From Youngiibacter multivorans (GTDB taxonomy: Bacteria > Bacillota > Clostridia > Clostridiales > Clostridiaceae), in assembly GCF_017873395.1 (NCBI RefSeq), contig NZ_JAGGKC010000035.1:1-32000 (forward strand): a stretch of 32,000 nucleotides of DNA. The letters are read 5' to 3'. Within the stretch, counting starts at the first letter, position 1, and every line of letters starts with the position of its first letter. Below the pieces are notes generated by a model. The model did no database searches. It saw only the letters and a program-made list of their open reading frames with translations, and was not told the DNA's origin. The translations under genes and the position numbers were made by a program. Shown piece after piece: positions 6,619 through 32,000 of this stretch.

Positions 6619-6650
6619 GAAAGCGTCTTGGAAAGCCAAGGCGTTTTATT
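6619..6650 (+). terminator. Rho-independent terminator
   Basis: AAAGCGTCTTGG-AAAG-CCAAGGCGTTTT hairpin with G-U wobbles, followed by a T-run. Confidence 0.6.
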
Positions 6651-6677
6651 ATGCGCAAAAATAAGGAGGAACAACGA

Positions 6678-7782: not shown

Positions 7783-7802
7783 TGGGTAACGAGGAGACAC
7801 AT

Positions 7803-7958: not shown

Positions 7959-8022
7959 CTATATATGTAGTTGCTATGTATCAAAATGAGAGTTAACATT
8001 GGTGCTGAAAGGAGGAGATCAA

Positions 8023-16787: not shown

Positions 16788-16821
16788 GATATCACTCCTT
16801 GAAATTGTTTAAAAATATTAA

Positions 16822-16837
16822 AGCAATAATCATGCCA
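16822..16837 (-). promoter_or_regulatory. Sigma-54 (-24/-12) promoter TGGCAT-GATTA-TTGCT for the dehydrogenase gene
   Basis: The reverse complement of 16822-16837 is TGGCATGATTATTGCT, with correct GG/GC spacing. It lies ~35 nt upstream of the ATG. Confidence 0.8.
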
Positions 16838-16866
16838 ATTAATATCATAAACAATTTCAAACTAAA

Positions 16867-16927
16867 TTGGCAAATTGTTGCCAAAAGTGTTGCAGTTAGT
16901 GTTGTGGCAACTGTTGCGTTGCTGTAA
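16867..16927. promoter_or_regulatory. Putative enhancer (UAS) array: TTGGCAA-ATTG-TTGCCAA palindrome plus GTTGC/GCAAC repeats
   Basis: GTTGC at 16877, 16889, 16913 and 16918; GCAAC at 16907. An 18-bp palindrome lies at 16867-16884. The array is 30-90 bp upstream of the minus-strand sigma-54 promoter. Confidence 0.5.
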
Positions 16928-16961
16928 TATACTTGGTAATTGCACTATTTAGGAGGTATTT

Positions 16962-18875: not shown

Positions 18876-18884
18876 TGTGTTTAC

Positions 18885-18915
18885 GCAACGTTGCCAATGT
18901 TGCTGTAAACGTTGC
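18885..18915. promoter_or_regulatory. Putative enhancer (UAS) array: GCAACGTTGC palindrome plus GTTGC repeats
   Basis: GCAACGTTGC at 18885-18894; GTTGC at 18899 and 18911. It shares the 10-mer GTTGCTGTAA with the 16.9-kb array. It lies ~100 bp upstream of the sigma-54 promoter at 19007. Confidence 0.5.
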
Positions 18916-19006
18916 GGTTTAGTTATGATGGATAAAAAGTGTTCAATTATTACAATGAATTGAATGAAAAACTTAAAAATACTGATAGTATCTCTGAAAA
19001 CGGTTT

Positions 19007-19022
19007 TGGCATGGTATTTGCT
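19007..19022 (+). promoter_or_regulatory. Sigma-54 promoter TGGCAT-GGTAT-TTGCT for the permease/amidohydrolase operon
   Basis: Exact -24 GG / -12 GC spacing, 47 nt upstream of ATG 19069. Confidence 0.8.
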
Positions 19023-19068
19023 TAAACTATGACAGCTAGCCAAAATAATTTGAAAAGGAGATCGGAAA

Positions 19069-20046
19069 ATGAAGCTTGTTAAGACAATGAAAAAGTTCCC
19101 TGGAGGGATGATGGTAATACCATTATTGTTAGGCTGCATTATTAATACTACTATTCCTCAAGTTTTGACAATAGGAGGATTCACCACTGGATTATTTAAA
19201 GGTGGAACAGCTACGTTAGTTGGACTTTTTATTTTGTGCAGTGGCGCAACTATAAACTTGAAAGAAGCAGGAGAGCCACTTTATAAAGGTGCAATACTTA
19301 CAATCCTAAAATATGCTATTGGAGTTGCAATTGGGTGGGGAATAAGCTTAGCATTTGGGCCAGCAGGTATTCTAGGACTCACACCCTTAGCAATAATTGC
19401 GGCAGTTACAAATTCTAATGGTGCAATATATACTGCTTTAGCTAAAGAGTTCGGTGATAAGACGGATGTCGGTGCGATAGCTATACTATCATTGAATGAT
19501 GGGCCATTCCTAACAATGATTGCCCTTGGAGCGACTGGAATTGCTGAAATTCCTATAATCGCACTCGTTGCAGCAATAGTCCCACTTATTATAGGATTCA
19601 TATTGGGTAATCTTGATGAGGATTTTCGTAAACTCCTCTCTGATGGTTTAAATATGCTTTTACCTTTTAATGGATTTGTGCTAGGAGCAAACATGAGTTT
19701 GTTAACGATTGCTAAAGCAGGGTTCTCTGGTATACTTCTTGGTTTCATTACAGTTATGTTTACTGGAGTCCTTACATATTATATCTACAGCTTTATAAGA
19801 AGAAAACCTGATCCTATGGGTATGGCTGTTGGAACATGTGCTGGAAATGCTGTAGCAACACCAGCATCTGTTGCCTTAGCTGATCCAGCAATGGCACAGT
19901 ATGCTCCAGCAGCCACAGCACAGGTAGCGGCAGCTGTAGTTGTTACTGCGATATGCACCCCATTACTAACTGGTTTTTTCCACAAGCAAGCTCAGAAGAA
20001 AATTGCGAAAATTGAGAGAACTAAACTAGAAAACGGAATTGAGTAA
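19069..20046 (+). CDS. kdgT: 2-keto-3-deoxygluconate permease family transporter (KdgT-like)
   Basis: The N-terminus ...KKFPGGMMVIPLLLGCIINT... and ~325 aa polytopic profile match KdgT. AAAGGAGA RBS present. Confidence 0.8.
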   Translation: MKLVKTMKKFPGGMMVIPLLLGCIINTTIPQVLTIGGFTTGLFKGGTATLVGLFILCSGATINLKEAGEPLYKGAILTILKYAIGVAIGWGISLAFGPAGILGLTPLAIIAAVTNSNGAIYTALAKEFGDKTDVGAIAILSLNDGPFLTMIALGATGIAEIPIIALVAAIVPLIIGFILGNLDEDFRKLLSDGLNMLLPFNGFVLGANMSLLTIAKAGFSGILLGFITVMFTGVLTYYIYSFIRRKPDPMGMAVGTCAGNAVATPASVALADPAMAQYAPAATAQVAAAVVVTAICTPLLTGFFHKQAQKKIAKIERTKLENGIE

Positions 20047-20066
20047 ACAACTCGGAAGGATAAACT

Positions 20067-21221
20067 ATGAGCGTATTGTATAAGGCTTCAAAAATTGTTG
20101 TTGGTGAAAATCTGGAGCTAATAGAAAATGCTTCTATTCTAGTTAAAGATGGTAAGATAATAAAAATTCTTAGCAATTCTGAGGTTGATGATTTTGGATT
20201 TGAATATGAGCTTGTTGATTTTGGTCAGAAGACAATAATTCCTGGAATGATAGATTGCCATAATCATTTAGCACTTGACACCAGACTTGATAATCATCTT
20301 GTTAGAATGAACGATAGTGAATGTGAACAGACAATTAGAGCAATAAAAACAATGAAAGATGACCTGTTATCTGGTGTAACTACAGCAAGATGTCTTGGAG
20401 ACAGGTATTATATTGACGTAACATGTAAAAAGGCTCAGCTAGAAGGACGAATAATGGGTCCCAAACTAATTGTTAGTGGAATAGGGATGAGAGCATCCCA
20501 TGGGCATGGTTATGTAGGGCTCCCTCATTGTGGTAAAGAGGAGTTTCGAAAAACTGCAAGAGAGAACATCGCTAAAGGCGTGGATTTTTTAAAAGTCTTT
20601 ATGACAAAAGTCATAAATGCTACACCATACATATACCATTTTCTAACTCTCGACGAGCTCAAGGTTGTAGTGGAGGAAGCAAAAAGTGTAGGTATCACAA
20701 CAGCATGTCATTGCTCAGGAGGGCAGGGGCTTGATGATTGTATTACTGCTGGCATTGATTGTTTAGAGCACGTCTATTATATTTCGGATGAACAGATCAA
20801 AAGAGTCAAAGAAGCTGATATGTGGGTAGTCTATACACCAAGTTATGCGCTTAACAACGAACTTTTGTTTAAGTTTTCTCCTAAGGATCGTGAAGGTAGT
20901 CTCCAAGAAAAGGAAATTATTAAGGGGTGTCTAGAAAACTCCATCAAGGGAAAACTCAAATTCGGAATTGGTACTGATGGAATACATCAAGGATTGGCTC
21001 AAGAGGCAATATATATCTCAGAGTTAGGTGCAAACAATAGAGATGTATTGGCAGGAATTACCACAAATGCAGCTAAGATTTGTGGAATATCGAGTTATAG
21101 AGGTGCAATAAGCGAAGGGCTTGATGCTGATTTAGTTGTTCTTGAGGGTAATCCACTTGAAGATATATCAGCTCTAAAACAGGTTTTTTCTGTTATTCAG
21201 TCAGGTGAAATAATTAGATAA
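20067..21221 (+). CDS. Amidohydrolase-superfamily metallo-hydrolase
   Basis: IIPGMIDCHNHL metal-binding HxH motif. The C-terminus ...G.I.EG.DADLVVLEGNPLEDI is typical of the family. Confidence 0.8.
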   Translation: MSVLYKASKIVVGENLELIENASILVKDGKIIKILSNSEVDDFGFEYELVDFGQKTIIPGMIDCHNHLALDTRLDNHLVRMNDSECEQTIRAIKTMKDDLLSGVTTARCLGDRYYIDVTCKKAQLEGRIMGPKLIVSGIGMRASHGHGYVGLPHCGKEEFRKTARENIAKGVDFLKVFMTKVINATPYIYHFLTLDELKVVVEEAKSVGITTACHCSGGQGLDDCITAGIDCLEHVYYISDEQIKRVKEADMWVVYTPSYALNNELLFKFSPKDREGSLQEKEIIKGCLENSIKGKLKFGIGTDGIHQGLAQEAIYISELGANNRDVLAGITTNAAKICGISSYRGAISEGLDADLVVLEGNPLEDISALKQVFSVIQSGEIIR

Positions 21222-21224
21222 TTT

Positions 21225-21252
21225 AAAAGGCACACAAAAACGTGTGCCTTTT
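21225..21252 (+). terminator. Rho-independent terminator
   Basis: AAAAGGCACAC / GTGTGCCTTTT perfect stem with a T tail. Confidence 0.8.
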
Positions 21253-21405
21253 AATATCTTTACCATATAGGAATTAAGCTAATTAATCAAAGTAAATCTT
21301 GGACTAAAACACATCATGTTTTTGATAAAAGAAGTCTGCAGTAACAAGAAAAATGTAACTTTATATAAGACACTTCAATTACTGTTTCAAAAGGAGAATT
21401 CTAGA

Positions 21406-22677
21406 ATGAAAGAAAAAATTAGATTATGTTGCATTGCCGATGATTTTACGGGAGCTAGTGATATTGCGTCATTCTTTTCAGAAGATGGCTTAAGAACTCT
21501 TGTAACAAATGGAATACCCAATAATTTTGTCGAAATTGAAGATGCTGATATTGTAGTCATCGCTTTAAAAACAAGAACGTTAAATGTGGATGAAGCTGTC
21601 AGTGAGTCCCGAAAAGCCCTAGAGTGGGCCTTGGATAAAGGATGTGAGAAATTCTACTTTAAATACTGTTCTACTTTTGATTCTACTTCAAAGGGTAATA
21701 TTGGTCCTGTCGCTGATATGATGATGGAAAAGCTCGGGATCAGGTATACTGTGGTTTGCCCTTCACTTCCGGTGAATGGCAGAACTGTTAGACATGGCAT
21801 ATTATATGTGAATGGAACTCCGTTGAGCGAAAGTCACATGAAGAACCACCCTTTGACTCCGATGACGAATTCAGATATTAGGGTGCTTCTTGGAGAACAA
21901 AGCAAGTATCCGATAATCCTTTTGGATGAGAATGCTTTTCAAAGTGGAAGCGACTTCAAAGATTTGCTAAGAGAAATGGACGGGAAATGGGAACATTTCT
22001 ATATTGTCCCGGATTATTATTTTGAGGAACATGGAATGAGAATCGTTGATTATTTCGAAGATCTTGTTCTCTATACAGGAGGCTCAGGACTTGCTACACA
22101 TTTGGGCAAGAAAATGGTAGCAAAATCCGGAATTCAGCAGAACAGGAATCAAAAATATGAACTTAGTGGTCCAACTCTACTAATTGCTGGGAGCTGCTCT
22201 ACCGCAACGCTGGGACAAATAGAAAGGTACATTTCAGAAGGATTGCCCTATATTAAAATCGAACCCGAGATGCTGGTTTCAGGCCAACAAACCATAGATA
22301 CCTTATGGAGCATTATTAGTGAGTGTAACAATGGACCAATTCTCGTATTTAGTTCTGATACTCCAGACAATATTCTAAAAGCACAGGAAAATGTTGGTGT
22401 GGAAATATCTGAATTGATAGAAGGTGTTGTATCAGAGCTAGCTAAAAAAGCTGTAGACAATGGAATAGGGAAAGTGGTTGTTGCCGGTGGTGAGACTTCA
22501 GGTGCTGTAACACGAAGGCTTGGTTATAATGTGTTTTCTATAGGGAAGAGTGTTGCACCTGGGGTCCCGGTTATGATACCGCTTGATAATAAAAGCATGA
22601 AACTAATATTGAAATCTGGAAATTTTGGAAGTCCTGAATTCTTTTTAAAAGCAATAAATTTGATGGAGGAATCATAA
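21406..22677 (+). CDS. Four-carbon acid-sugar kinase family protein (DUF1537; OtnK/DtnK-like)
   Basis: ATG 21406 lies after AAGGAG. The N-terminal CIADDFTGASDIA signature and C-terminal VVAGGETSGAV nucleotide-binding motif are present. Confidence 0.8.
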   Translation: MKEKIRLCCIADDFTGASDIASFFSEDGLRTLVTNGIPNNFVEIEDADIVVIALKTRTLNVDEAVSESRKALEWALDKGCEKFYFKYCSTFDSTSKGNIGPVADMMMEKLGIRYTVVCPSLPVNGRTVRHGILYVNGTPLSESHMKNHPLTPMTNSDIRVLLGEQSKYPIILLDENAFQSGSDFKDLLREMDGKWEHFYIVPDYYFEEHGMRIVDYFEDLVLYTGGSGLATHLGKKMVAKSGIQQNRNQKYELSGPTLLIAGSCSTATLGQIERYISEGLPYIKIEPEMLVSGQQTIDTLWSIISECNNGPILVFSSDTPDNILKAQENVGVEISELIEGVVSELAKKAVDNGIGKVVVAGGETSGAVTRRLGYNVFSIGKSVAPGVPVMIPLDNKSMKLILKSGNFGSPEFFLKAINLMEES

Positions 22678-23270
22678 TGGAGTTTGAAACTATGCTAGAT
22701 GATGCTATTTGGATTGCTAACTCACTCTTTACTCGCGGCAAGGCAACCGGATCTTCTGCTAACCTTAGCTTTAGGTGTGAAGATAAGATATATATTACCG
22801 GAACCGGCACATGCTTTGGAAGGCTCAAAAAGGATGATTTTGCAATTATGAAGTATGAATCTGTGGGAGATTGCTTGCCAATGAATACGGTAATAGCAAG
22901 TAAAGAGTTTCCGTTGCATTTGGCGTTTTACAGGAAAAGTGAAGATATTAAAGCGGTGATACATACACATTCCTTTTATTCAACTGTTTTTTCATGTTTC
23001 AATCATGAAAAGGCAAATGATATAATGCCCGACATCACGCCTTATTTAAAAATGAAGGTAGGAACGATTGGGTTGGTTCCGTACGCGAGGCCAGGTAGCA
23101 AAGAACTTTTTGCTTTGTTTGGACAAAGAATAAAAGATGATGATGCATTTTTGTTAGCGAACCATGGTCCAATTGTTGCAGGGAGCAATCTTATGAATGC
23201 TTTCTATGGTATAGAGGAACTTGAAGAAAATGCAAGGATAGCACTCCATTTTAGAAACCCTAACCTTTGA
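22677..23270 (+). CDS. Class II aldolase/adducin-family protein (OtnC-like 3-oxo-tetronate-4-phosphate decarboxylase or aldolase)
   Basis: TAATG 1-nt overlap with the kinase gene. Motifs: GSSANLS...ITGTG...HTHS...ANHG. Confidence 0.7.
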   Translation: MEFETMLDDAIWIANSLFTRGKATGSSANLSFRCEDKIYITGTGTCFGRLKKDDFAIMKYESVGDCLPMNTVIASKEFPLHLAFYRKSEDIKAVIHTHSFYSTVFSCFNHEKANDIMPDITPYLKMKVGTIGLVPYARPGSKELFALFGQRIKDDDAFLLANHGPIVAGSNLMNAFYGIEELEENARIALHFRNPNL

Positions 23271-23400: not shown

Positions 23401-23692
23401 TCATGTCTGTTAGGTTTAGAGCTATATCGTTGTGCCTAGATGTAAATATAAACTTCGCGAAATGACTAATTTCACGAAGTTTTTATTTCTGTGACCGAAA
23501 AGTAGCAGAGCATGTGTAAGTGTAAGGATATCGCTGATATTATAATCCTATTTAAAAATTCATAAATGTCTGCAATTAAAACGTAAATTTTTTCGGATCT
23601 CAAAGTTAGTATATGTAAATTCAAATTTGCATTGCTCTTTTAACGTTTTAAACCTAAACTCTAGGTAAATGGTGTGGAGTGAGGAGACAGAG

Positions 23693-25261
23693 ATGAAGGT
23701 TTCGGATTTTCTAAACAGGGTATCGGTTCTTGAGAAGACAGGGACAGCTCTTACAGGTGATACAAACATACAAGATATACGTGGCGATTTACTAGATACA
23801 GACGAAAGTCTGTTGAGCGTTCTTGATGAAAATGGAGTAAAGCAGGGTGAAGTAGACACAATAAATATACGATATTTGGTTTCAAAGTACAGTGAGCTTC
23901 CTGCCATAGAGCTTTTGGACCACTTCAGGGAAGGGCTAGTCATAATCGATGAAAACGGAAGAATATGCTATATTAATGACGCCTATAAGCAAATACTAGG
24001 AGTTTTGGCGAGGAAGGTCGTAGGTAAATTTATATTTGACATCGAGGGTTCTGCACTTCTATATGAGGTTCTAAAAAGCGGAAAGCCAATGATACAGGAA
24101 AAGCATCTCGTAAAATCAATCAACAAGTATGTGTCTCTCAGGATGTGCCCCTTATATAAGGGCAGCAAAATAATCGGAGCGTTCTCGATCTTCACTGACA
24201 TTACAGAAATCGACAACCTGAATAATGAGGTCAAAAGATATTCAGGTATCGTAGATGAATACCACAGGGAAAAGGAAGTAGAAAGCGAAGCTTTGAGAGC
24301 GCAGATAATCGGCAACAGCCCCAACTTCCTCCGTATCCTCGATCAGGCAGTCATAGTAGCAAAGACAGATGCAGCAGTCCTTGTAAGCGGAGCAAACGGA
24401 TCAGGCAAAGAAGTGATAACAAAGCTTATCCACATGAGCTCGGCAAGGCGCAGCAAGCCCTTCATTACTGTAAATTGCAGTGCTATTCCCGAGTCCCTTA
24501 TTGAGAGCGAGCTTTTCGGATATGAGGAAGGTGCGTTCACGGGCTCCAGGAAGGGCGGCCAAATGGGCAAGTTCGAGCTGGCAAACAAGGGAACCATATT
24601 CCTGGATGAGATAGGCGATATGCCGCTGCAGATGCAGGCGAAGCTACTTAGGGTCCTGGAGCGAGGAGAAATAGAGAAGATAGGTCGGCAGAAGAATGTC
24701 GAGGTGGATGTGAGAGTCATTGCTGCAACAAATCAGCCACTTCCAGAATTGATCAAGCAGAAAAAGTTCAGGGAGGACCTATATTACAGGCTGAACGTGG
24801 TGAATCTGACTGTACCATCGCTTAAAGATAGGGGGAATGATGTTATCCTCCTAGCGAACCATTTTGCAGATTACTTCTGTGAAAAGTATTCAAAGAAGCT
24901 ATCAATTTCCGATGAGGCATACCGTGCCCTTGCAAGATATTCATGGCCTGGCAATGTCAGGGAGCTTCAGAACAGCATAGAGCATGCTGTAATATTATGC
25001 TCCGGTCCAATCATAATGAGGGAGCATCTTCCTGGAAGGATAATGGAGGGCGAGATATCGGAGCCTGATGTATCTTTGTCAGCCCCAATAACACAGTGTG
25101 AAGATGTTGATTATGCGAGAAGCATAGCAAAGGCAGAGAAGCAGCTAATGCTTGAGGCTCTGAAAAGGTCATCAGGAAGTAGGACTAAAGCAATGGAACT
25201 ACTAGGTCTCAGCAGGAGAACATTTTATCGGAAACTAAAAGAAAATGGCCTAGTGCCATAA
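23693..25261 (+). CDS. Sigma-54-dependent transcriptional activator (N-terminal sensor + PAS + AAA+ + Fis-type HTH)
   Basis: ATG 23693 lies after GAGGAG. Motifs: GANGSGKE, ESELFGYEEGAFTGS, and C-terminal AMELLGLSRRTFYRKLKE. Confidence 0.9.
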   Translation: MKVSDFLNRVSVLEKTGTALTGDTNIQDIRGDLLDTDESLLSVLDENGVKQGEVDTINIRYLVSKYSELPAIELLDHFREGLVIIDENGRICYINDAYKQILGVLARKVVGKFIFDIEGSALLYEVLKSGKPMIQEKHLVKSINKYVSLRMCPLYKGSKIIGAFSIFTDITEIDNLNNEVKRYSGIVDEYHREKEVESEALRAQIIGNSPNFLRILDQAVIVAKTDAAVLVSGANGSGKEVITKLIHMSSARRSKPFITVNCSAIPESLIESELFGYEEGAFTGSRKGGQMGKFELANKGTIFLDEIGDMPLQMQAKLLRVLERGEIEKIGRQKNVEVDVRVIAATNQPLPELIKQKKFREDLYYRLNVVNLTVPSLKDRGNDVILLANHFADYFCEKYSKKLSISDEAYRALARYSWPGNVRELQNSIEHAVILCSGPIIMREHLPGRIMEGEISEPDVSLSAPITQCEDVDYARSIAKAEKQLMLEALKRSSGSRTKAMELLGLSRRTFYRKLKENGLVP

Positions 25262-25305
25262 AGTAAACAAAGCGTCAAATTGTATACATATATTTTCTGG
25301 GTTAG

Positions 25306-25319
25306 TGCCATATGTGGCA
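25306..25319. promoter_or_regulatory. Palindrome TGCCA-TATG-TGGCA, candidate enhancer site
   Basis: Perfect inverted repeat ~135 bp upstream of the sigma-54 promoter at 25451. Confidence 0.35.
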
Positions 25320-25450
25320 TTATTTGGCGGAAACATTGACTTACATTAATTATGAAAGTCAGTTTCCGTCATTTGTTTTATCCATTAAAATCAAGTAAAA
25401 TGAATACGTTTAACACCTCGCAGTCATTTATTTTTTGATGTACTCAAATT

Positions 25451-25466
25451 TGGCATGATGTTTGCT
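25451..25466 (+). promoter_or_regulatory. Sigma-54 promoter TGGCAT-GATGT-TTGCT for the AtuA-like/HMG-CoA reductase operon
   Basis: Exact -24/-12 spacing, ~83 nt upstream of ATG 25549. Confidence 0.8.
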
Positions 25467-25548
25467 TATTAGATTCTGAAAGGTTGAAAGACCTGAGACT
25501 GCACTTTACGCGCGAAGAGCAGTGAATAAGGAAATTGGGAGTGATTTT

Positions 25549-26916
25549 ATGAAGACAGTATATATAGGTGGTGGACAGGGATTTTGGGGAGATACCAACG
25601 ATGGTGCAATAGCCATGGTAGAAAACGCGAAAATTGACTATCTTGCCTGCGACTACCTTGCTGAGCTTACGTTGTCAATAATGCAGAAGCAAAAGAATAA
25701 AAATCCTAACGCTGGCTTCGCCAAGGATTTCATAACCTTATACGAACAGATAGCTGAGACCTGCTACAAAAAGAAGATTAGAATAATAACCAATGCGGGC
25801 GGAATGAACATCACTGGAGCTGTAAAGGAAATCGAAAAGATTGCCAAAGCAAAGGGACTAAAGGGCCTGAAGATAGGTTATGTACTTGGAGACGACATTA
25901 AGGACAAGCTTCCTGGACTTCTCGAAAGCGGAGTAAAGTTCGTTAATATGGACAATGAAGGCGAATTCACTGAAATTCTTGATAGGATTTATAACGTCAA
26001 CGCATACCACGGATATGAACCTATACTAAAGTGTCTGGAAAAAGGTGCAGATATCGTGATAACTGGAAGGGCTACCGATTCAAGCCTTTTTCTAGCACCG
26101 CTTATCCACGAATTCGGCTGGGATCCTAGTGACCATGATAATATGGCAAAAGGAATAATCACTGGACACCTCCTCGAATGCGGTGGACAGGTTTCTGGTG
26201 GAAACTGTGACTACAATTGGAGAGATATTCCTGACCTTGCAGACCTTGGATTCCCGATAGCTGAGGTCACTCAAGACAGTCTCATCATTACAAAAACTCC
26301 GGGAACGGGCGGACTTGTAACAGAACAGTCAGTGAAAGAACAGCTGCTTTATGAGATTCATGACCCTGCAAACTATATAACTCCTGATGTCATAGTTGAC
26401 GTGAGCCATGCAACTGTTGAGAGTATAGGAGAGAACAGAGTAAAGGTTTCAAATATAAAAGGAAAACCTGCGCCTGACTCTCTCAAGCTCTGCGTGGGGT
26501 ATTCAGCTGGATTCAAGGTTGAATCTTTATACTGCTTCGCATGGCCTGATGCCTATGACAAGGCAAAGCTTGCTTCAGAAATAGTCATGGAAAAGATGAG
26601 AAAGAAGGACATGAAGACCGAGGAGGTCAGGATCGATTACGTAGGCCTCAATTCACTTCACCTGTCGCTTGCAGACATGTCAGAAGAAAGGCTCAAGGAC
26701 CTCAATGAGGTAATCCTTAGGATAGCGATAAGGACAAAAGACAAGTCAGAGGCTGAGAAGATAATACCTGAGATTGCACCGCTTCAGCTGAACGGACCTC
26801 CAGGTGGAGCCCTGTTCGGAGGAAGATCCAAAGTGAGTGAGGTTATCGCCCTATGGCCGACAGTAGTGCCAAAGTCCAGCGTAGTGCTTACTTCAAACAA
26901 TCTGGAGGTGCTTTAG
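25549..26916 (+). CDS. AtuA-like acyclic-terpene-utilisation family protein (DUF1446 domain)
   Basis: ATG 25549 lies after GGGAG. The N-terminus IGGGQGFWGD and ...ADIVITGRATDSSL... fit the recalled DUF1446 pattern. 455 aa. Confidence 0.65.
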   Translation: MKTVYIGGGQGFWGDTNDGAIAMVENAKIDYLACDYLAELTLSIMQKQKNKNPNAGFAKDFITLYEQIAETCYKKKIRIITNAGGMNITGAVKEIEKIAKAKGLKGLKIGYVLGDDIKDKLPGLLESGVKFVNMDNEGEFTEILDRIYNVNAYHGYEPILKCLEKGADIVITGRATDSSLFLAPLIHEFGWDPSDHDNMAKGIITGHLLECGGQVSGGNCDYNWRDIPDLADLGFPIAEVTQDSLIITKTPGTGGLVTEQSVKEQLLYEIHDPANYITPDVIVDVSHATVESIGENRVKVSNIKGKPAPDSLKLCVGYSAGFKVESLYCFAWPDAYDKAKLASEIVMEKMRKKDMKTEEVRIDYVGLNSLHLSLADMSEERLKDLNEVILRIAIRTKDKSEAEKIIPEIAPLQLNGPPGGALFGGRSKVSEVIALWPTVVPKSSVVLTSNNLEVL

Positions 26917-26917
26917 G

Positions 26918-27241
26918 ATGAAGAAGACATACTATCTCAAAGACCTGGCACATGGCAGATCGGGTGATAAGGGAGACAGAAGCAATATCTGTATGTTTGC
27001 AAGGAAGCCTGAAGACTTTGAATTCCTAAAGCAAGAGCTTACTGCAGCAAGGGTCAAGGAATACTTCGGGGACTTGGTGAAGGGTGACGTGGTAAGGTAT
27101 GAGGTCGATTCTCTCAAGGGATTTAACTTTGTAATGGACAAAGCATTAGGCGGCGGAGCTACGATGTCAATCAGGATGGATAACCTCGGAAAGACGATGT
27201 ATACGGCACTTCTGAGGATGAAGCTTGAACGTGAAGAATAA
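26918..27241 (+). CDS. Small protein resembling the C-terminal domain of long AtuA proteins (split subunit)
   Basis: LAHGRSGDKGDRSNI...VVRYEV.SLKGFNFVM...LGGGATMSIRMDNLGKT resembles the tail of full-length AtuA. The start is 1 nt after the upstream stop, with a GGAGGTG RBS. Confidence 0.55.
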   Translation: MKKTYYLKDLAHGRSGDKGDRSNICMFARKPEDFEFLKQELTAARVKEYFGDLVKGDVVRYEVDSLKGFNFVMDKALGGGATMSIRMDNLGKTMYTALLRMKLEREE

Positions 27242-27251
27242 GGAGGAGAAA

Positions 27252-28520
27252 ATGAAGAACAGCGAATACAAAGGATTTTATAAGCTTTCTATTGAGGACA
27301 GGCTGAAGGAGGTTGTTGAATTTGCAGGCTTAACAAAGGATGAGTCTGAAGCTCTAAGTGACCCGAATGTACTCACCTCGGATATGGCTGACCATATGGT
27401 TGAGAATGTTATCGGAAGGTACTCTCTTCCAATGGGTGTAGCAGTCAACTTTCTGATAAATGGAAAGGATTATCTGATACCAATGGTTACAGAAGAGCCA
27501 TCTGTCGTAGCAGCTGCAAGCAACGGAGCCAAGATAGCAAGAGAAAATGGAGGTGTATTTGCGAGCAACAGCGGAACTGTAATGATTTCACAGATTCAGG
27601 TATTGGACATTGAGGACGCCAATTATGCAAGAATAAAAGTTCTGGAAAACCGAAAGGCAATATCTGAAAAATGTAATGAAATGGATCCTGTTCTGATCAA
27701 GCTTGGCGGGGGAGTAGTAGATGTTGAGGCGAAAGTTGTTGAATCAACGATTATAGGCGACATGCTGGTAGTGCACCTTAAGGTAAACACCCTTGATGCA
27801 ATGGGAGCGAATGCGGTAAATACAATGGCAGAAGGTATCTCACCATTCATAGAGGAAATCACTGGTGGTCGTGTTAACCTAAGAATTTTATCTAATCTTG
27901 CTATATTCAGGCTTGCAAGGGCAAGAGCAAAGTTCAGCAAAGAAAGTCTTGGGGGAGAACATGTGGTTGATGCAATAATTGATGCCTATGCGTTCGCTGA
28001 AGCTGATCCTTTCAGGGCGGCTACACACAATAAGGGAATAATGAACGGAATTTCAGCAGCTGTCCTTGCTACTGGAAACGACACAAGAGCAGTTGAATCA
28101 GGAGCACACGCTTATGCATCCATAAGCGGTTCCTATAAGCCGTTATCTACATGGGAGAAGGATAAAAACGGAGATCTAGTCGGAACCCTAGAACTTCCAA
28201 TGGCTGTCGGTCTGGTTGGTGGAGCTACCAAAGTCCATCCTCAGGCTAAAGCTGCAGTAAGGATACTCAATGTCAAGTCTGCAGGGGAACTAGGCCAAGT
28301 GTTCGCAGCACTCGGACTCATTCAGAATTTTGCGGCAGTAAGGGTTCTTGCTACTGAGGGAGTTCAAAGAGGTCATATGGGTCTGCATGCGAGGAATATT
28401 GCAGCAGTAGCCGGAGCGACAGGAGATGCTCTTGAAGCAATAGTCAAGAGAATGGTTTCAGAGAAGAAAGTACGGGTTGAGTATGCTCAGGAACTGTTAA
28501 AGGAATATGAAAATAAATAA
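27252..28520 (+). CDS. mvaA: Class II hydroxymethylglutaryl-CoA reductase
   Basis: Motifs: ENVIG, MVTEEPSVVAAASNGAK, LDAMGANAVNTMAE, GNDTRA, GLVGGATKVHP, RGHMGLHARN. ATG 27252 lies after AGGAGGAG. Confidence 0.9.
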   Translation: MKNSEYKGFYKLSIEDRLKEVVEFAGLTKDESEALSDPNVLTSDMADHMVENVIGRYSLPMGVAVNFLINGKDYLIPMVTEEPSVVAAASNGAKIARENGGVFASNSGTVMISQIQVLDIEDANYARIKVLENRKAISEKCNEMDPVLIKLGGGVVDVEAKVVESTIIGDMLVVHLKVNTLDAMGANAVNTMAEGISPFIEEITGGRVNLRILSNLAIFRLARARAKFSKESLGGEHVVDAIIDAYAFAEADPFRAATHNKGIMNGISAAVLATGNDTRAVESGAHAYASISGSYKPLSTWEKDKNGDLVGTLELPMAVGLVGGATKVHPQAKAAVRILNVKSAGELGQVFAALGLIQNFAAVRVLATEGVQRGHMGLHARNIAAVAGATGDALEAIVKRMVSEKKVRVEYAQELLKEYENK

Positions 28521-28545
28521 CTTAATTTATCAGGGGGGAATCAGA

Positions 28546-29010
28546 ATGGAAAATAAGAAGGTCCAACTAACTGAAGTCTGGGGCGACACCGTTGACCTGA
28601 AAGAACTATTAATATCATCCATCCTTGGTATAGTACTTACTGTTGGCACGTATCTCATAGGTAGGAGTATTTTCCTAAAGATAGAGGGACTTGACATCGG
28701 CCTTGCCAAAGGATACTCGCTTCTCGTCGGTATAGGGGGGTGTGTAGCTTCTGGTATAATTTCCGCAAAACTATTCAAGCCAAAAAGGATTGTTGAGGAA
28801 AAATTTGAGAATGAGAATATAGAAGAAATCTTAATGGCAGCAGGGATGACAGTTGAAGATGAGATCAATGCACTGAGAAATGTTGATCCCGCAATCATAG
28901 CAGAAATGGAAGAGTTCGAGCTATACAGCCTGCTCGAGCTTGTGCCTGAGGACTCACCAAACTACAAACCTGAATACAAGGAAAAGGCAAAGGCAAAGGG
29001 GGGAAAATAA
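28546..29010 (+). CDS. Small membrane protein (2 predicted TM helices plus acidic cytoplasmic tail), possible small subunit of the adjacent permease
   Basis: ATG 28546. Hydrophobic segments are LLISSILGIVLTVGTYLIG and YSLLVGIGGCVASGIISA. Its stop abuts the ATG of the TctA-like gene. Confidence 0.55.
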   Translation: MENKKVQLTEVWGDTVDLKELLISSILGIVLTVGTYLIGRSIFLKIEGLDIGLAKGYSLLVGIGGCVASGIISAKLFKPKRIVEEKFENENIEEILMAAGMTVEDEINALRNVDPAIIAEMEEFELYSLLELVPEDSPNYKPEYKEKAKAKGGK

Positions 29011-30381
29011 ATGTTATTATTACAGGCTTTCATCGCAGCTACCCTTGGAGGAGTGCTGTATACAATAATCGGAATTATACCTGGAACAGATGAGACGGCT
29101 ACAATGGCTCCTGTTACTCTCATTCTCGTACTCATGGGTCTGCCTGGTGAGGTGCTCTTCGCTTGGTTCGTCGGTATAATCGTTGCCATGCAGATAAGCC
29201 ATACCATACCTACAGCAATGGCTGCACTTCCTGGAAGCACTATGGCTGTACCTATGGTACTAAACAGCTCAATAGCAAAGAGATTGGGTATACCTCATGT
29301 TGCAATGAGAAAGATGGCAGCAGGCTCGCTCATTGGATCGATCACAGGACTTGTAGTGGCAATCGGATTCGCACTTTTAATGGCACCACTAGGTAACATG
29401 GTAAAGCCATACATCGGACTCATATTTACAATCGGAGCTATGGTTATCGGCTATATGTCAAAAGCCAAGTGGGGTGCAGTAATCGCGCTATTCCCTTTCG
29501 CTTTCCTCATACAGGGATTCCAGAGGATAGCAGTTGAAGGTGTCGGTAAGACTCTCTTCATCTCCATATTCATGGGAATCACAATAGGACCTATGATTGC
29601 TGAGGTATTCAATATCTTCATACCAAGCCAAAGAGATAAACAGAGAAGAAACAAACCTTCAACTATTTGGCTTGCACCAGATTCAAGCAAGAAGACAGGG
29701 ATATTCCCTAATCCTTTCAAGATATTCACTAAAAAGCAAAATAAGACTATACTGCTCATGTCTTCTATAGGAGCCTGCACATTTACATTCTCACCAGTAG
29801 GTATGACAGTAATGCTTGGTGAGATTATAAATGGAAAATGCAAGGAACTATATGAAAGAGTGACAACGACACTTGGCGTTCAGGATTCCATAAGCAATAG
29901 CACATATCTTGGAGAGTTCATAATACCTTTGATCGCTTTTGCAGGACTTCCATTGAGCCCAATGGCTGCAGGACCGGGAGCGCCGCTCTTCAACGCACCT
30001 CCTAGGTTTACTGTTGAACCGCTGAATAATCTGGCACAGCTGCTCTCGATACCAGACTACTTCATATTCGGTTTTATCGGAATAGTAGGCGGAGCACTTT
30101 TCGCATTCCCTATAGCTATAAAGAAGGCAAGGTCATGGACAGAGCTCATGTTCAGAGCAGTTAGCCATGAAGCCCTCATAGGAGCATTCATAGGACTCAT
30201 ATGCATGCTTGCATTCTATGAAGCCGGCATTCTTGGAATATTCGTAGCAGTCAGCATAGGCATATTCGGCGGATTACTTCACAACCTATTTGGAATACAC
30301 ACCGGTGTCCAGTTTATGGCATACTATGCATCAGGATATATCGTCACTCAGGCATTGGCTCTTGCAAAGATACTGATTTGA
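29011..30381 (+). CDS. TctA-family (tripartite tricarboxylate transporter large subunit-like) permease
   Basis: 456 aa and polytopic. ...IIGIIPGTDETATMAPVTL... and ...AMAALPGSTMAVPMVL.S.......G...A.....AGSLIGS fit the TctA/DUF112 pattern. Confidence 0.65.
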   Translation: MLLLQAFIAATLGGVLYTIIGIIPGTDETATMAPVTLILVLMGLPGEVLFAWFVGIIVAMQISHTIPTAMAALPGSTMAVPMVLNSSIAKRLGIPHVAMRKMAAGSLIGSITGLVVAIGFALLMAPLGNMVKPYIGLIFTIGAMVIGYMSKAKWGAVIALFPFAFLIQGFQRIAVEGVGKTLFISIFMGITIGPMIAEVFNIFIPSQRDKQRRNKPSTIWLAPDSSKKTGIFPNPFKIFTKKQNKTILLMSSIGACTFTFSPVGMTVMLGEIINGKCKELYERVTTTLGVQDSISNSTYLGEFIIPLIAFAGLPLSPMAAGPGAPLFNAPPRFTVEPLNNLAQLLSIPDYFIFGFIGIVGGALFAFPIAIKKARSWTELMFRAVSHEALIGAFIGLICMLAFYEAGILGIFVAVSIGIFGGLLHNLFGIHTGVQFMAYYASGYIVTQALALAKILI

Positions 30382-30406
30382 TAGAATGATTGAATAGATT
30401 GAGCAG

Positions 30407-30431
30407 ATCCCCGCACTTTGTTTGCGGGGAT
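30407..30431 (+). terminator. Hairpin terminator after the permease gene
   Basis: ATCCCCGCA / TGCGGGGAT 9-bp stem with a 7-nt loop. The T tail is weak. Confidence 0.5.
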
Positions 30432-31101
30432 TCCTGTTGATGAGTTAGTTCAACATTATTATAGATGCATATAACAATTAGATTGAGGTATCCGGAAATG
30501 AGGTGTGAAAAATATAATTAAGCAAATCCTAAAGACATAATGGCATTGAATGATCTACAACATTCAGTTCCGCAACAAAGGAAGTCAGAGAAGAATTTTA
30601 TTATATGGAGCGTGGATATTACTGACCGATACGCTAAAATAGAGTTTTCTGTCTACACTGTTTTACATTTTTAAAGGGTAAATTAACTTCCTTTTAGTAA
30701 GCTGTGAGATTTAATGTAAAAACCATAGTAGTTGTTTGTCTGTTAAGTCATGAAGAGTTTTATAGTTGTACTTCAACTTAAGTAACCATTTTCCGGTAAG
30801 TCCAAGGATTTAGACCTGGAATTGGGTAAACACATACTTTACCTAATTCATAGTATCTGGTATAACTGCAAATCTTCAAGACTAGCCACTTCTCGTAAAA
30901 ATACAAATCCCTTCGTAACTTTATTTCTCTGAAAAAGGCGAAATTGCCAGGATGTAGGATTTGAAACATACTAATAGTCCAAACTGTATACGCAGCAGAA
31001 GATAATTCAGAAGTGTAATCAGGTGACATTATGTGGCTGTTCTTAGTTATTGTAATAGCTGGCTGGAGTAATAAGCATATCATAAAACCAGGAGGATAAT
31101 A

Positions 31102-32000
31102 ATGAAAGAAATTGTTATAGTAAGTGCTTCAAGGACACCGATAGGGTGCTTCATGGGAGCTTTTTCTGATGTCCAGGCAAAGACACTTGGAGCAGTGAGC
31201 TTAAGGGAAACGATCAGACGGGCGGGAATTGACCCTAATATTATTGATGAGGTCATAATCGGAAATATCAGCGGAACTGACCCGAAGGGAAACCCTGCAA
31301 GGGAAGCAGCACTTGATGCCGGTATTCCAATAGAGGTGCCGGCCTTCACTGTAAACAAGAACTGCGCATCAAGCATTAAGAGCGTATCTCTGGCAGCCAC
31401 TATGATAAAGGCCGGGGAGGCTGACATAATGCTTGCGGGCGGCATGGAGAACATGACTAGGATCCCCTATGTGATAAGGAACGCTCGCAATGGCTTAAGG
31501 ATGGGCAAAGATACGATAGACGACCTATTGTCTGACCTCCTTGAGGGAATGGGGATGACAGCGGAGAGGCTTGCGGGAAAGTACAATATCAGCCGTGAGG
31601 AACAGGATAGGTTTGCTTACTCCAGCCAGATGAAGGCTGCGAAAGCAATGGAGCTTGGTGCCTTCGATGATGAGATTACCCCTATAGAGGTTATGACAAG
31701 GAAGGGAACTGTCACAGTATCAAAGGATGAGGGAGTGAAGCCAGGCACTACATATGAAGGACTTGCAAAGCTAAAGCCTGCCTTCAAGAAAGACGGTACG
31801 GTGACTCCCGGAAATTCCTCAACAATCAATGATGCAGGCGCTTCAGTGCTTCTGATGAGCAGGGAAAAAGCCAGGGAGCTTCAACTTAAACCTATGGCTA
31901 AAGTTGTAGGCTGGGCATCTGCAGGGTGTGACCCAGAAATTATGGGTATAGGACCGGTGCCTGCTACAAGGAAGCTTCTTGAGAAGACAGGAATGAAGCT
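31102..32000 (+). CDS. Acetyl-CoA C-acetyltransferase (thiolase), 3' partial
   Basis: Not in the ORF track because it runs off the window. AGGAGG + ATG 31102. The sequence begins MKEIVIVSASRTPIGCFMGAF...FTVNKNCASSIKS (active-site Cys) ...PGNSSTINDAGASVLLMS... Confidence 0.9.
   Translation, partial: MKEIVIVSASRTPIGCFMGAFSDVQAKTLGAVSLRETIRRAGIDPNIIDEVIIGNISGTDPKGNPAREAALDAGIPIEVPAFTVNKNCASSIKSVSLAATMIKAGEADIMLAGGMENMTRIPYVIRNARNGLRMGKDTIDDLLSDLLEGMGMTAERLAGKYNISREEQDRFAYSSQMKAAKAMELGAFDDEITPIEVMTRKGTVTVSKDEGVKPGTTYEGLAKLKPAFKKDGTVTPGNSSTINDAGASVLLMSREKARELQLKPMAKVVGWASAGCDPEIMGIGPVPATRKLLEKTGMK

Follow-up and report, generated by a model that had tools for sequence, protein, structure and literature searches.

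The 32,000-nt stretch of Youngiibacter multivorans DNA analyzed here (the window) probably carries a sigma-54-controlled operon for the anaerobic catabolism of mevalonate (or for HMG-CoA funnelling), in which a two-subunit AtuA-family enzyme replaces HMG-CoA lyase (HMGL). An AtuA-type lyase in such an operon would give a long-uncharacterized enzyme family a directly testable substrate.

Gene organization and operon boundaries

Pfam and NCBIfam searches of the window confirmed the gene positions and identities that had been claimed from the sequence alone, and the profile searches proposed for 25549–27241 and 27252–28520 returned PF07287, PF23544 and TIGR00532. All of these genes are on the forward strand. 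A gene for a sigma-54 enhancer-binding protein (EBP, 23669–25261) precedes five packed genes, which encode an AtuA-family large subunit (25549–26916, 455 aa; PF07287, E 2e-140), an AtuA ferredoxin-like small subunit (26918–27241, 107 aa; PF23544, E 1e-28), a class II NAD-type HMG-CoA reductase (HMGR; 27252–28520, 422 aa; TIGR00532), a small membrane protein with two predicted transmembrane (TM) segments (28546–29010, 154 aa) and a TctA-like permease (29011–30381, 456 aa; PF01970, E 2e-16). The gaps between these five genes are 1, 10, 25 and 0 nt, and every gene of the cassette is preceded by a Shine-Dalgarno sequence.

A GC-rich hairpin on the same strand (30402–30441) starts 20 nt past the permease stop codon and has a folding energy of -22.1 kcal/mol (z = -4.07), with none of 200 shuffles as stable. 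It probably marks the end of the operon; a simple terminator scan did not flag it because its T-tract is weak. The next gene encodes a thiolase (acetyl-CoA C-acetyltransferase; Thiolase_N, 1e-87) and is cut by the window end (31102–32000). It had been counted as a member of the module, which did not hold up, as 720 nt and the strong hairpin separate its start from the permease gene and it is absent from all close relatives of the cassette: no thiolase lies 3' of the cassette in L002, L003, L005, L006, L086 or L087. Thiolase genes do occur inside or beside AtuA operons at four other loci (L007, L116, L133 and L136). The thiolase is thus a neighbour outside the conserved cassette. Almost nothing can be seen beyond position 32000, because the source contig ends at 32,473 nt.

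Profile searches detected no gene for HMG-CoA lyase, HMG-CoA synthase or mevalonate kinase anywhere in the window, in agreement with the earlier remark that no lyase is visible.

Transcriptional control

The EBP combines PAS_9, Sigma54_activat (E 1e-68), AAA_lid_14 and HTH_8 (Fis-type) domains, with a Walker A motif at residue 241 and GAFTGS at residue 288. An alternative start at 23693 gives a protein of 522 aa, matching the gene calls in relatives, most of which also place the EBP gene immediately before the operon. Among the NCBIfam models, the EBP matches PrdR best, with a score under the cutoff. A sigma-54 (-24/-12) promoter, TGGCATGATGTTTGCT, lies on the forward strand at 25451–25466 and ends 83 nt before the AtuA start codon. 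Its consensus pattern has three matches in the window against 0.29 expected, a number reached in 0 of 100 shuffles, and in 14 of 17 related loci an equivalent element precedes AtuA by 50–185 nt. Both the pattern statistics and the Pfam domains bear out the promoter and the dedicated PAS-AAA+ regulator described by the sequence-only reading.

The palindrome TGCCATATGTGGCA (25306–25319), 145 nt upstream of the -24/-12 element, is the sole match of its pattern in the window, against 0.01 expected. The window and the related loci compared with it (1.48 Mb) contain 21 exact TGCCA-N4-TGGCA sites, of which 18 are 121–226 nt upstream of an operon's sigma-54 promoter, at loci of the AtuA type as well as the HMGL type; the 18 include L001, a duplicate of the window locus. 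Judged by this positional pattern, the palindrome is a candidate upstream activator site for EBP binding.

The HMG-CoA reductase

The reductase scored 476 bits against TIGR00532 (cutoff 260) and is 54% identical to the enzyme of Pseudomonas mevalonii. The hallmark motifs that had been noted were verified: all catalytic and HMG-binding residues are present (E83, K267, D283, H381, R261, N271, S85 and the ENVIG and DAMG motifs), and so is D146, the Asp that confers NAD specificity. Its closest relatives are the P. mevalonii enzyme, which is catabolic, and those of the Delftia/Burkholderia type (453–465 bits), whereas the biosynthetic enzymes of Gram-positive bacteria score about 300 bits. These similarities predict a reductase of the catabolic type, which would oxidize mevalonate and CoA to HMG-CoA.

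The opposite direction was considered as well. In a biosynthetic module, the AtuA pair would produce HMG-CoA by condensing acetate and the acetoacetyl-CoA supplied by the downstream thiolase, and the reductase would form mevalonate for isoprenoids. A thiolase does follow in the window, and many Gram-positive bacteria use class II HMGRs for biosynthesis. The thiolase is not conserved alongside the cassette, however, and neither mevalonate kinase, HMG-CoA synthase nor a decarboxylase was found in the window or near any cassette or other locus examined. Biosynthesis is further disfavoured by the NAD-type Asp146, by inducible sigma-54/EBP control combined with an importer, and by sister loci in which HMG-CoA lyase, a cleavage enzyme, replaces the AtuA pair; moreover, Clostridia and Fusobacteria generally make isoprenoids via the MEP pathway. 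We therefore regard a biosynthetic role as very improbable, and the earlier preference for catabolism is supported.

The AtuA pair and its structural relatives

The AF2 model of the AtuA large subunit (pLDDT 96.4) has a single full-length structural match, chain A of a citramalate lyase (9evf_A; TM 0.78, E 7e-28), and a profile match to 9erq_A (E 1e-13). For the small subunit (pLDDT 89), which is 100% identical to the "AtuA-related protein" of Youngiibacter multivorans, the top match was chain B of the same enzyme (9evf_B, 105 aa; probability 1.00, TM 0.64). The two models match only these A and B chains. The enzyme is CmlAB of Raoultella planticola, an AtuA-family citramalate lyase of glutamate fermentation that cleaves the free dicarboxylate citramalate to pyruvate and acetate and was crystallized with ADP (PDB 9erq/9evf). 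AtuA had been said to have no demonstrated activity, but this enzyme is its one characterized relative. Both enzymes have two subunits of nearly the same size (455 + 107 aa in the window, 456 + 105 aa in CmlAB), similar folds and common GRxxD, LEC and YExxDP motifs, and the proposed chemistry is alike, namely C-C cleavage at a tertiary alcohol with release of acetate. They differ in that identity is only ~17–18%, that the family-invariant His207 is Lys in CmlA, and that the predicted substrate of the pair in the window is a CoA thioester rather than a free acid.

The statement that AtuA had been proposed as a lyase of the acyclic terpene pathway was correct: the Pseudomonas enzyme is proposed to convert hydroxy-isohexenylglutaryl-CoA, the analogue of HMG-CoA with an isohexenyl group, to a 3-oxoacyl-CoA and acetate (PMC4847356). 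That enzyme belongs to the same families (PF07287 + PF23544), but the ferredoxin-like domain is fused to AtuA in a single protein of ~600 aa, as opposed to the separate genes of the window, and identity is about 35–40%. To our knowledge, the lyase assignment of Pseudomonas AtuA has never been demonstrated, and LiuE reportedly carries the proposed activity in P. aeruginosa. We predict that the large subunit in the window is the catalytic part of a lyase that splits HMG-CoA.

At other loci, this AtuA subfamily is found directly beside a dicarboxylate-type family III CoA-transferase (40 of 50 loci); other neighbours are enoyl-CoA hydratase and thiolase. All three produce or use (hydroxy/keto)acyl-CoA esters. 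On the AtuA tree, the proteins linked to HMGR are mixed with those linked to CoA-transferase.

These neighbours bear on whether the pair might instead cleave a free acid, for example imported 3-hydroxy-3-methylglutarate to acetoacetate and acetate, with the reductase and CoA-transferase serving side routes or product use. CmlAB does take free citramalate, di- and tricarboxylates are the typical cargo of TctA-family permeases, and the acetoacetate released by cleavage could in principle be activated by a CoA-transferase; the partner CoA-transferase, however, resembles dicarboxylate CoA-transferases and not the family I acetoacetate type. The reductase would moreover yield HMG-CoA rather than HMG, and the cassette contains no thioesterase. 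The enoyl-CoA hydratase partner and the Atu enzymes of Pseudomonas all work on CoA esters, as does the HMGL-family enzyme that occupies the same operon slot in sister loci. We consider cleavage of a free acid unlikely.

Distribution of AtuA and HMG-CoA lyase among related loci

The six-gene cassette (EBP, AtuA, AtuA ferredoxin-like subunit, HMGR, 2-TM protein, TctA) recurs at 57–94% identity in Youngiibacter fragilis, Clostridium moutaii, Aminipila butyrica, Anaerococcus, Peptoanaerobacter, Fusobacterium polymorphum and F. necrophorum, where its flanks are unrelated. Conservation of the AtuA-HMGR linkage stood in so far as it recurs in distant anaerobes; it is a minority arrangement for both AtuA and HMGR, and most AtuA-subfamily members in metagenomes adjoin a family III CoA-transferase, not HMGR.

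Among 39 bacterial loci with an HMGR of at least 58% identity, an AtuA pair was located within 7 kb of HMGR in 14, plus one on the opposite strand, and an HMGL-family gene was near HMGR in 20 (directly upstream in 13). The AtuA pair, too, typically sits directly upstream of the reductase gene. Both together occurred at none of the 39 loci, and the naive probability of zero overlap is 1.5e-7, calculated for loci that are not phylogenetically independent. On the HMGR and TctA trees, which are neighbour-joining (NJ) trees without support values, loci of the AtuA type are interspersed with those of the HMGL type. This pattern suggests non-orthologous displacement, with the two enzymes swapped repeatedly.

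Sister operons with the order EBP, HMGL-like gene, HMGR, 2-TM protein and TctA, such as those of Eubacterium ramulus (L014) and Clostridium bovifaecis (L009), have the same promoter type and upstream TGCCA-N4-TGGCA palindrome as the AtuA-type operons. Their orthologues are 44–51% (EBP), 63–69% (reductase) and 59–67% (permease) identical to those of the window; the difference is an HMG-CoA-lyase-family gene in the slot of the AtuA pair. The idea that the pair sits in an HMG-CoA-lyase slot thus gained ground from the complementary distribution, the interleaved trees, the common palindrome and the predicted lyase fold.

Alternatively, the AtuA pair could be a hydratase/isomerase or a nucleotide-dependent accessory, and a lyase whose gene lies outside the operon, elsewhere in the genome, could cleave HMG-CoA. 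The binding of ADP by CmlAB indicates that the chemistry of the family is not fully understood, and at 4 of the 39 loci neither AtuA nor an HMGL-family gene is near the reductase. Against this stand the strict complementarity of AtuA and HMGL across the other 35 loci, their repeated swapping within one operon slot and the modelled lyase fold, which makes a non-lyase role quite doubtful.

By score, the lyase of L009 is a bona fide HMG-CoA lyase (388 bits, cutoff 246). A canonical enzyme is encoded only there and in L031. At the other 18 of 20 lyase-type loci the gene belongs to a divergent HMGL-like subfamily, which at 206 bits stays under the cutoff of 246, has Gln in place of Cys266 and contains a loop insertion of 16 residues; what is displaced is therefore not in every case a proven HMG-CoA lyase. 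This raises the question of whether the module acts on a related hydroxy acid (a different 3-hydroxy-3-alkyl compound, or a conjugate from a plant or host) of which mevalonate is just an analogue; the "HMGR" would then oxidize a primary alcohol to a CoA thioester for cleavage by the AtuA pair. Besides the divergent enzyme, most HMGL-type sister loci have additional genes (AcnX-type dehydratase subunits, amidohydrolases, M20 peptidases, Opp transporters and a CoA-transferase), a hint that the feedstocks are more complex. In the environment mevalonate occurs at low abundance, so the operon may really be induced by a related compound, and the permease bears only a distant resemblance to TctA. On the other hand, the reductase keeps every HMG-binding and catalytic residue at its high identity to the P. 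mevalonii enzyme, and L009 combines a canonical HMG-CoA lyase with the same EBP, reductase and permease. Such a substrate has a small but real chance of being the true one.

The permease and its 2-TM partner

The permease matches PF01970 across the full profile but weakly (60 bits), and the assignment says nothing about the substrate. Orthologues at 59–70% identity are present in both AtuA-type and HMGL-type operons, and the permease is predicted to be the substrate importer. The 154-aa protein has no Pfam or NCBIfam match; it has two hydrophobic segments and an acidic C-terminal tail, and at 22 loci its gene directly precedes the one for the TctA-like protein, which makes it a conserved partner of the permease. 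Compared with TctABC, this partner has two TM helices rather than four and no TctB match, and no cassette examined encodes a TctC binding protein. The likeness of HMG to citrate is a weak argument for a TctA-type importer, since the reductase needs mevalonate rather than HMG, no CoA-activating enzyme for HMG is encoded and the permease is without TctB and TctC.

Proposed pathway and comparison with Pseudomonas mevalonii

In the mevalonate pathway that we infer, the PAS-domain EBP would sense the substrate, bind TGCCA-N4-TGGCA and activate the -24/-12 promoter. Mevalonate would be imported by the TctA-like permease with its 2-TM partner and oxidized by the NAD-dependent reductase (mevalonate + CoA + 2 NAD+ -> HMG-CoA + 2 NADH). 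HMG-CoA would then be cleaved by the AtuA/AtuA-ferredoxin heteromer, a CmlAB-type lyase, in place of the canonical enzyme. By analogy, a split into acetoacetyl-CoA and acetate is favoured, because the known and the proposed reaction of the family both release acetate. Acetoacetyl-CoA could be consumed by a housekeeping thiolase or the butyrate pathway, and the net result would be a redox-balanced fermentation of mevalonate to acetate and butyrate (C6H12O4 = C2H4O2 + C4H8O2).

The mevalonate-catabolic operon mvaAB of P. mevalonii consists of the NAD-dependent HMG-CoA reductase MvaA and the HMG-CoA lyase MvaB. The operon in the window is alike in its reductase type, with active-site and NAD-specificity residues kept, in the adjacency of the reductase gene to that of the cleavage step, and in its inducible, catabolic control. 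The product split may differ, being acetoacetyl-CoA and acetate here and acetyl-CoA and acetoacetate there. Unlike mvaAB, the operon has an unrelated two-subunit AtuA-family enzyme for the lyase and adds the permease with its partner and the sigma-54/PAS-EBP regulator, and the hosts of the cassette are strict anaerobes.

Gene content and recurrence of the cassette

The gene map, drawn from an ORF listing and family searches of the window, bore out the gene content, order and common direction that the sequence-only reading had proposed. On the forward strand, a gene for a sigma-54 enhancer-binding protein (EBP) with PAS, AAA+ and HTH domains (23669-25261; closest NCBIfam model PrdR, under cutoff) is followed by AtuA (25549-26916; PF07287, E 2e-140), its ferredoxin-like small subunit AtuAfd (26918-27241; PF23544, E 1e-28) and a class II HMG-CoA reductase (HMGR, 27252-28520; TIGR00532, 476 bits, cutoff 260; PF00368, E 4.5e-107). 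Next come a 154-aa protein that matches no family and has two hydrophobic helices (2-TM, 28546-29010) and a distant, full-length member of the TctA permease family (29011-30381; PF01970, E 2.3e-16, 60 bits against a cutoff of 28.9). The five operon genes are separated by 1, 10, 25 and 0 nt, and a ribosome-binding site precedes each of them. The transport genes resemble TctABC loosely: the large subunit TctA is present, whereas the small partner has 2 TM helices where TctB has four, and no gene for a TctC-type binding protein was found in or adjoining any cassette examined.

A thiolase gene on the same strand, starting at 31102 and incomplete at the window end, had been counted as part of the module. 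The five packed genes, the EBP and the promoter were retained, and the thiolase was excluded on account of a 720-nt gap, a hairpin within it (-22 kcal/mol, z = -4.1) and the absence of a thiolase downstream of the cassette in any close relative examined. The hairpin was not flagged by a simple terminator scan because its T-tract is weak. The sole ORF of the spacer (30442-31101) encodes 101 aa on the minus strand (30778-31083) and has no family match; it is annotated as a gene in a public assembly (L001, a duplicate of the window locus). An Rfam scan of the whole window gave zero matches, hence no riboswitch in the leader or the 720-nt gap.

The window covers nearly the entire 32,473-nt Y. multivorans contig, its AtuAfd being 100% identical to the protein of that species, and the surroundings of the cassette were judged from relatives. 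The six-gene cassette is intact, with wholly different flanks, in a 94%-identical metagenomic contig, in Y. fragilis (93%, the closest genome in the species collection) and in a 74% relative. It was also found in Aminipila butyrica, Clostridium moutaii, Anaerococcus, Peptoniphilaceae, Peptoanaerobacter stomatis, Fusobacteriaceae, Fusobacterium polymorphum and F. necrophorum. Its neighbours already differ from Y. multivorans to Y. fragilis, so the six-gene unit behaves as a portable module. In C. moutaii a second, highly divergent AtuA and AtuAfd pair lies directly after the cassette permease (L008, 13324-15005), its AtuA being an outlier on the AtuA tree; two AtuA-type enzymes may thus act in one pathway in this species.

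Predicted sigma-54 control and a common upstream palindrome

The sigma-54 promoter and its cognate type of activator were both recovered. The -24/-12 element TGGCATGATGTTTGCT at 25451-25466 has the correct spacing of the -24 GG and -12 GC, and the EBP carries the GAFTGS loop and a Walker A motif. Three matches to the -24/-12 consensus lie in the window, where 0.29 would be expected by chance; of 17 relatives, 14 have such an element 50-185 nt upstream of AtuA. No rpoN gene lies within the window; its presence in the genome is implied by three sigma-54 promoters and two EBPs within 32 kb.

Further upstream, at 25306-25319, lies the palindrome TGCCATATGTGGCA (TGCCA-N4-TGGCA), the single match in the window where 0.01 would be expected. 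Across the window and the loci fetched by then (1.48 Mb), 18 of 21 exact sites were located 121-226 nt upstream of the operon's sigma-54 promoter, one of the 18 being the duplicate of the window locus. The palindrome is common to loci in which the reductase is accompanied by AtuA (AtuA-type) and loci in which it is accompanied by an HMG-CoA lyase family gene (HMGL-type). The operon is absent from the text and supplement of a Clostridiales sigma-54 regulon reconstruction.

The reductase is closest to catabolic HMG-CoA reductases

Aligned globally with the 1qax sequence, the window HMGR is 54% identical to the catabolic enzyme of Pseudomonas mevalonii. It scored 453-465 bits against the P. mevalonii and related proteobacterial structures and about 300 bits against Gram-positive biosynthetic HMGRs. 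The same alignment demonstrated conservation of catalytic Glu83, Lys267, Asp283 and His381 (P. mevalonii numbering), of the HMG-binding residues Arg261, Asn271 and Ser85, and of the ENVIG and DAMG motifs. Asp146 is kept as well; in the P. mevalonii enzyme, this residue sets the preference for NAD over NADP, as established by mutagenesis. Based on the scores and the conserved active-site residues, HMG-CoA and mevalonate were taken as the probable substrate pair, with oxidation, in keeping with Asp146 and the catabolic gene context, as the likely direction. A related but different substrate for the module appears unlikely beside this close match to the P. mevalonii active site.

Mevalonate biosynthesis was rejected and is scarcely credible here: HMG-CoA synthase, mevalonate kinase, phosphomevalonate kinase and the decarboxylase are all missing from the window and from the 7-10 kb around the cassettes of L002, L003, L005, L086 and L087. 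A GHMP kinase at L086 is part of a gal operon on the opposite strand. Class II HMGRs that are 55-60% identical to that of the window and lack the cassette partners were found in Bathyarchaeia, Nitrososphaerota and Anaerolineae (most of L043-L085); these are presumably biosynthetic, and lie surprisingly near the bacterial catabolic clade.

The AtuA pair and HMGL-family genes do not co-occur at the reductase loci compared

The window holds no HMGL homologue (tblastn at 1e-8), as had been read from the sequence, and the slot is held by the AtuA pair. One genome per species was scanned with an alignment of the reductase clade, and 80 loci were scored for every component of the cassette by tblastn and ORF clustering. 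The comparison set comprised 39 bacterial loci with reductase identity of at least 58%, in which partners were counted within 7 kb of the reductase. The AtuA pair alone was present at 14 loci, always directly upstream of the reductase, and at one more on the other strand; 20 loci had only an HMGL-family gene, which occupied the same directly upstream slot in 13. Neither was present at four loci (two of them on short contigs), and no locus had both. Under independence, zero overlap would have a chance of about 1.5e-7; the loci are not independent, and the figure merely illustrates the pattern.

HMGL-type loci are exemplified by Eubacterium ramulus (EBP, HMGL, HMGR, 2-TM, TctA) and Clostridium bovifaecis (HMGL, EBP, HMGR, 2-TM, TctA), and the EBP, reductase and permease of both types are equally similar to the window proteins. 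In neighbour-joining trees, whether of the reductase or of the permease, the types interleave, which indicates several independent swaps. Complementary distribution, interleaving and a common palindrome together are what non-orthologous displacement, inside a single operon and regulon, would be expected to produce, in agreement with the placing of the AtuA pair in the lyase slot by the sequence-only reading. To a non-lyase role of the pair, with the lyase encoded elsewhere in the genome, we give very little credence beside a distribution in which the pair and HMGL-family genes never co-occur. Judged from its genes, the window module is predicted to work like the mvaAB operon of P. mevalonii (HMGR MvaA and HMG-CoA lyase MvaB). 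It differs in that the defining HMGL-family lyase beside HMGR is replaced by the AtuA pair, and in having its own regulator and transporter.

A canonical HMG-CoA lyase is encoded at two HMGL-type loci only, namely L009 (388 bits, cutoff 246) and L031, there in one of two gene copies. The other 18 encode a divergent HMGL-like subfamily (206 bits against the NCBIfam cutoff of 246), whose closest database and PDB matches are all HMG-CoA lyases. By comparison with a human HMG-CoA lyase reference sequence, this subfamily keeps Arg41, Asp42, Glu72, Asp204, His233 and His235, among them the metal and catalytic Arg, Asp and His residues of the lyase, has Gln in place of Cys266, and contains a 16-residue insertion in the signature loop. 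The subfamily, with VTLRDGFQHEE near its N-terminus, is encoded at L013-L015, L018-L020, L022, L023, L028-L031, L035-L037, L040, L048 and L078.

Two further arrangements were observed among the reductase loci. At L022, L023, L028, L030, L036 and L078 (~8.9-18 kb in each), a larger sigma-54 island runs from EBP, divergent HMGL and HMGR through AcnX large and small subunits, a 101-aa Cys-rich protein, Amidohydro_3 and a Na/Ala symporter to either a family III CoA-transferase with a crotonase or an M20 peptidase with an Opp-type ABC transporter. Since archaeal phosphomevalonate dehydratase is a member of the AcnX family, the linkage of AcnX to HMGR in Clostridia is intriguing. In Alkalihalobacillus and Pseudalkalibacillus (L081 and L083, ~8.4-14.2 kb), EBP, HMGR, a 92-aa membrane protein and a TctA-like permease are followed by an aminotransferase/aldolase-like protein and M20 amidohydrolases, with no AtuA or HMGL gene within 7 kb.

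The modelled fold of the AtuA pair matches citramalate lyase

The sole PDB relative of AtuA by sequence is 9erq/9evf (E 8.6e-5 in a single-sequence search, 1.2e-13 when a family profile was used), deposited as 'AtuA family protein / citramalate lyase subunit A (cmlA)'. This enzyme, CmlAB of Raoultella planticola, is the only solved member of the AtuA family, and 9evf, crystallised with ADP and pyruvate, is titled 'citramalate lyase - ADP - pyruvate complex'. The AlphaFold model of AtuA (pLDDT 96.4) gave one full-length structural match, 9evf_A (TM 0.78, E 7e-28). For AtuAfd (107 aa), searches of the PDB by single sequence and by profile found nothing; CmlB was detected through fold comparison only, with 9evf_B as the top match of the model (pLDDT 89; TM 0.64, probability 1.00). 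By sequence and modelled fold, the pair is a member of the AtuA/CmlAB family. Fused family members of ~600 aa contain both domains, which argues that AtuA and AtuAfd form one enzyme.

The subunits are of similar size (456 and 105 aa in CmlAB, 455 and 107 aa in the window pair), and CmlA and the window AtuA have in common the family-invariant Arg174/Asp177 (GRxxD), Glu210-Cys211 (LEC) and Glu269/Pro273 (YExxDP). CmlA differs in having Lys where the family-invariant His207 stands. Identity between the two pairs is low, and a CoA ester is the predicted substrate of the window pair. Cleavage of a free acid, as by CmlAB, would follow the one family member with an assigned reaction; for a pair encoded beside a reductase whose expected product is a CoA ester, we consider it distinctly unlikely. 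ADP is part of coenzyme A, and relatives that cleave CoA esters might therefore bind the CoA nucleotide where CmlAB has its ADP pocket; another possibility is that the family depends on a nucleotide cofactor. HMG-CoA is the methyl analogue of the Atu substrate. By analogy, the reactions of CmlAB, of Atu and on HMG-CoA are alike, in that a tertiary alcohol with a -CH2-COO- arm would yield a ketone and acetate. In an older paper, a DUF1446 gene was described adjoining methylaspartate ammonia-lyase in glutamate-fermentation clusters.

AtuA homologues away from the reductase

AtuA homologues of about 60% identity are not always reductase-adjacent: in two genome contigs and most metagenomic contigs, a family III CoA-transferase follows, resembling oxalate, succinate-glutarate and mesaconate enzymes. 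A metagenome scan gave 50 loci with AtuA identity of at least 49% and sufficient flank to judge, many of the gut contigs probably coming from the same species, so that the counts are not independent. The CoA-transferase was the partner at 40 of these (two also with a thiolase), the reductase cassette at five and a thiolase alone at one; four had no recognised partner, and an HMGL gene was found at none. At 41-47% AtuA identity, the partner was an enoyl-CoA hydratase in 6 of 15 loci. Reductase-linked and transferase-linked AtuAs intermix on the AtuA tree. The simplest reading would be a single lyase specificity fed by two routes that lead to one CoA ester, with mevalonate entering via the reductase or free hydroxymethylglutarate via the transferase.

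The order AtuA, AtuAfd, family III (dicarboxylate-type) CoA-transferase (L088 7001-11626, L089 7001-10692 and most of L091-L143) is the commonest arrangement of the subfamily in human-gut and bioreactor metagenomes. An esterase-type hydrolase (CocE/NonD or GDSL), an Opp-type transporter or a LacI regulator is often found nearby, and such modules may release hydroxymethylglutarate or a similar acid from esters, activate it and cleave it. At four unrelated loci (L007, L116, L133 and L136), a thiolase gene lies inside or beside the AtuA operon. A thiolase would be expected if the product were a 3-ketoacyl-CoA, and these neighbours therefore weakly favour cleavage to acetoacetyl-CoA and acetate.

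Proposed function

We propose that the cassette is probably a sigma-54-controlled mevalonate catabolic operon with the AtuA pair in place of HMG-CoA lyase. The EBP would sense the substrate, bind the palindrome and open the sigma-54 promoter; mevalonate would be imported by the TctA-like permease and its 2-TM partner, and oxidised by the reductase to HMG-CoA with formation of 2 NADH. After cleavage of HMG-CoA by the AtuA pair, the C4 unit would enter general metabolism, e.g., as butyrate formed using the 2 NADH, in which case conversion of mevalonate to acetate and butyrate would be redox-neutral. HMG had previously been suggested as the imported compound. This was rejected as the main reading, since the cassette lacks a CoA-activating enzyme and the reductase would be redundant.

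More tentatively, the AtuA pair could possibly represent a second, evolutionarily unrelated class of HMG-CoA lyase, which by analogy with its relatives would cut on the side opposite to the classical enzyme, giving acetoacetyl-CoA and acetate and keeping the thioester on the C4 unit. This would be a new, energetically favourable lyase reaction, possibly useful in pathway engineering. If true, gut, oral and sediment anaerobes, including the Fusobacterium nucleatum group, could with the help of an oxidative HMGR ferment mevalonate to acetate and butyrate in redox balance, and the same lyase, with a CoA-transferase instead of the reductase, would deal with hydroxymethylglutarate as the free acid. 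All members of the AtuA family might then, by extension, be regarded as 'acetate-releasing tertiary-alcohol lyases' for 3-hydroxy-3-alkylglutaryl-CoA-type substrates.

AtuA/DUF1446 is a large family, numbering 5,422 representative clusters at 50% identity, and since the Pseudomonas terpene work it has had no more than a tentative function; a structure and an assigned reaction are available for CmlAB alone, a distant member. Complementarity with HMG-CoA lyase names a commercially available substrate, HMG-CoA, for a defined AtuA subfamily, and thereby a cheap and concrete functional test. The gene content suggests that strict anaerobes of the human gut and mouth, among them Fusobacterium, Anaerococcus, Peptoanaerobacter, Flavonifractor and Eubacterium ramulus, have an undescribed capacity to break down mevalonate or hydroxymethylglutarate, which could matter for host-microbe exchange of mevalonate-pathway intermediates. 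Full-text searches of the searchable literature found no description of an anaerobic mevalonate operon or of the AtuA-HMGR linkage, and no primary paper on CmlAB.

Other features of the window

The first part of the window (1-10817) is a prophage remnant or prophage end, encoding a tail endopeptidase, a siphovirus DUF859 protein, two CBM-containing proteins, a holin, an amidase endolysin and two adjoining large serine recombinases (7999-9246 and 9243-10817). A gene for a PEP-mutase/isocitrate-lyase-superfamily protein (11206-12075; PF13714, E 2e-44) is followed by a 342-aa ORF that matches no family. Cleavage of 2-hydroxy acids is known in this superfamily too, but the gene appears to have no connection with the cassette.

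A second sigma-54 system spans 15375-23270, with a PrpR_N-type EBP gene (16962-18875) between divergent -24/-12 promoters. On the minus strand, TGGCATGATTATTGCT at 16822-16837 precedes a DRL-type oxidoreductase gene (15375-16787), and on the plus strand, TGGCATGGTATTTGCT at 19007-19022 precedes genes for a KdgT permease, an amidohydrolase, the 3-oxo-tetronate kinase OtnK (model match above cutoff) and an OtnC-like decarboxylase. From this gene content, the region looks like a sigma-54-controlled catabolic operon for acid sugars of the tetronate/threonate type.
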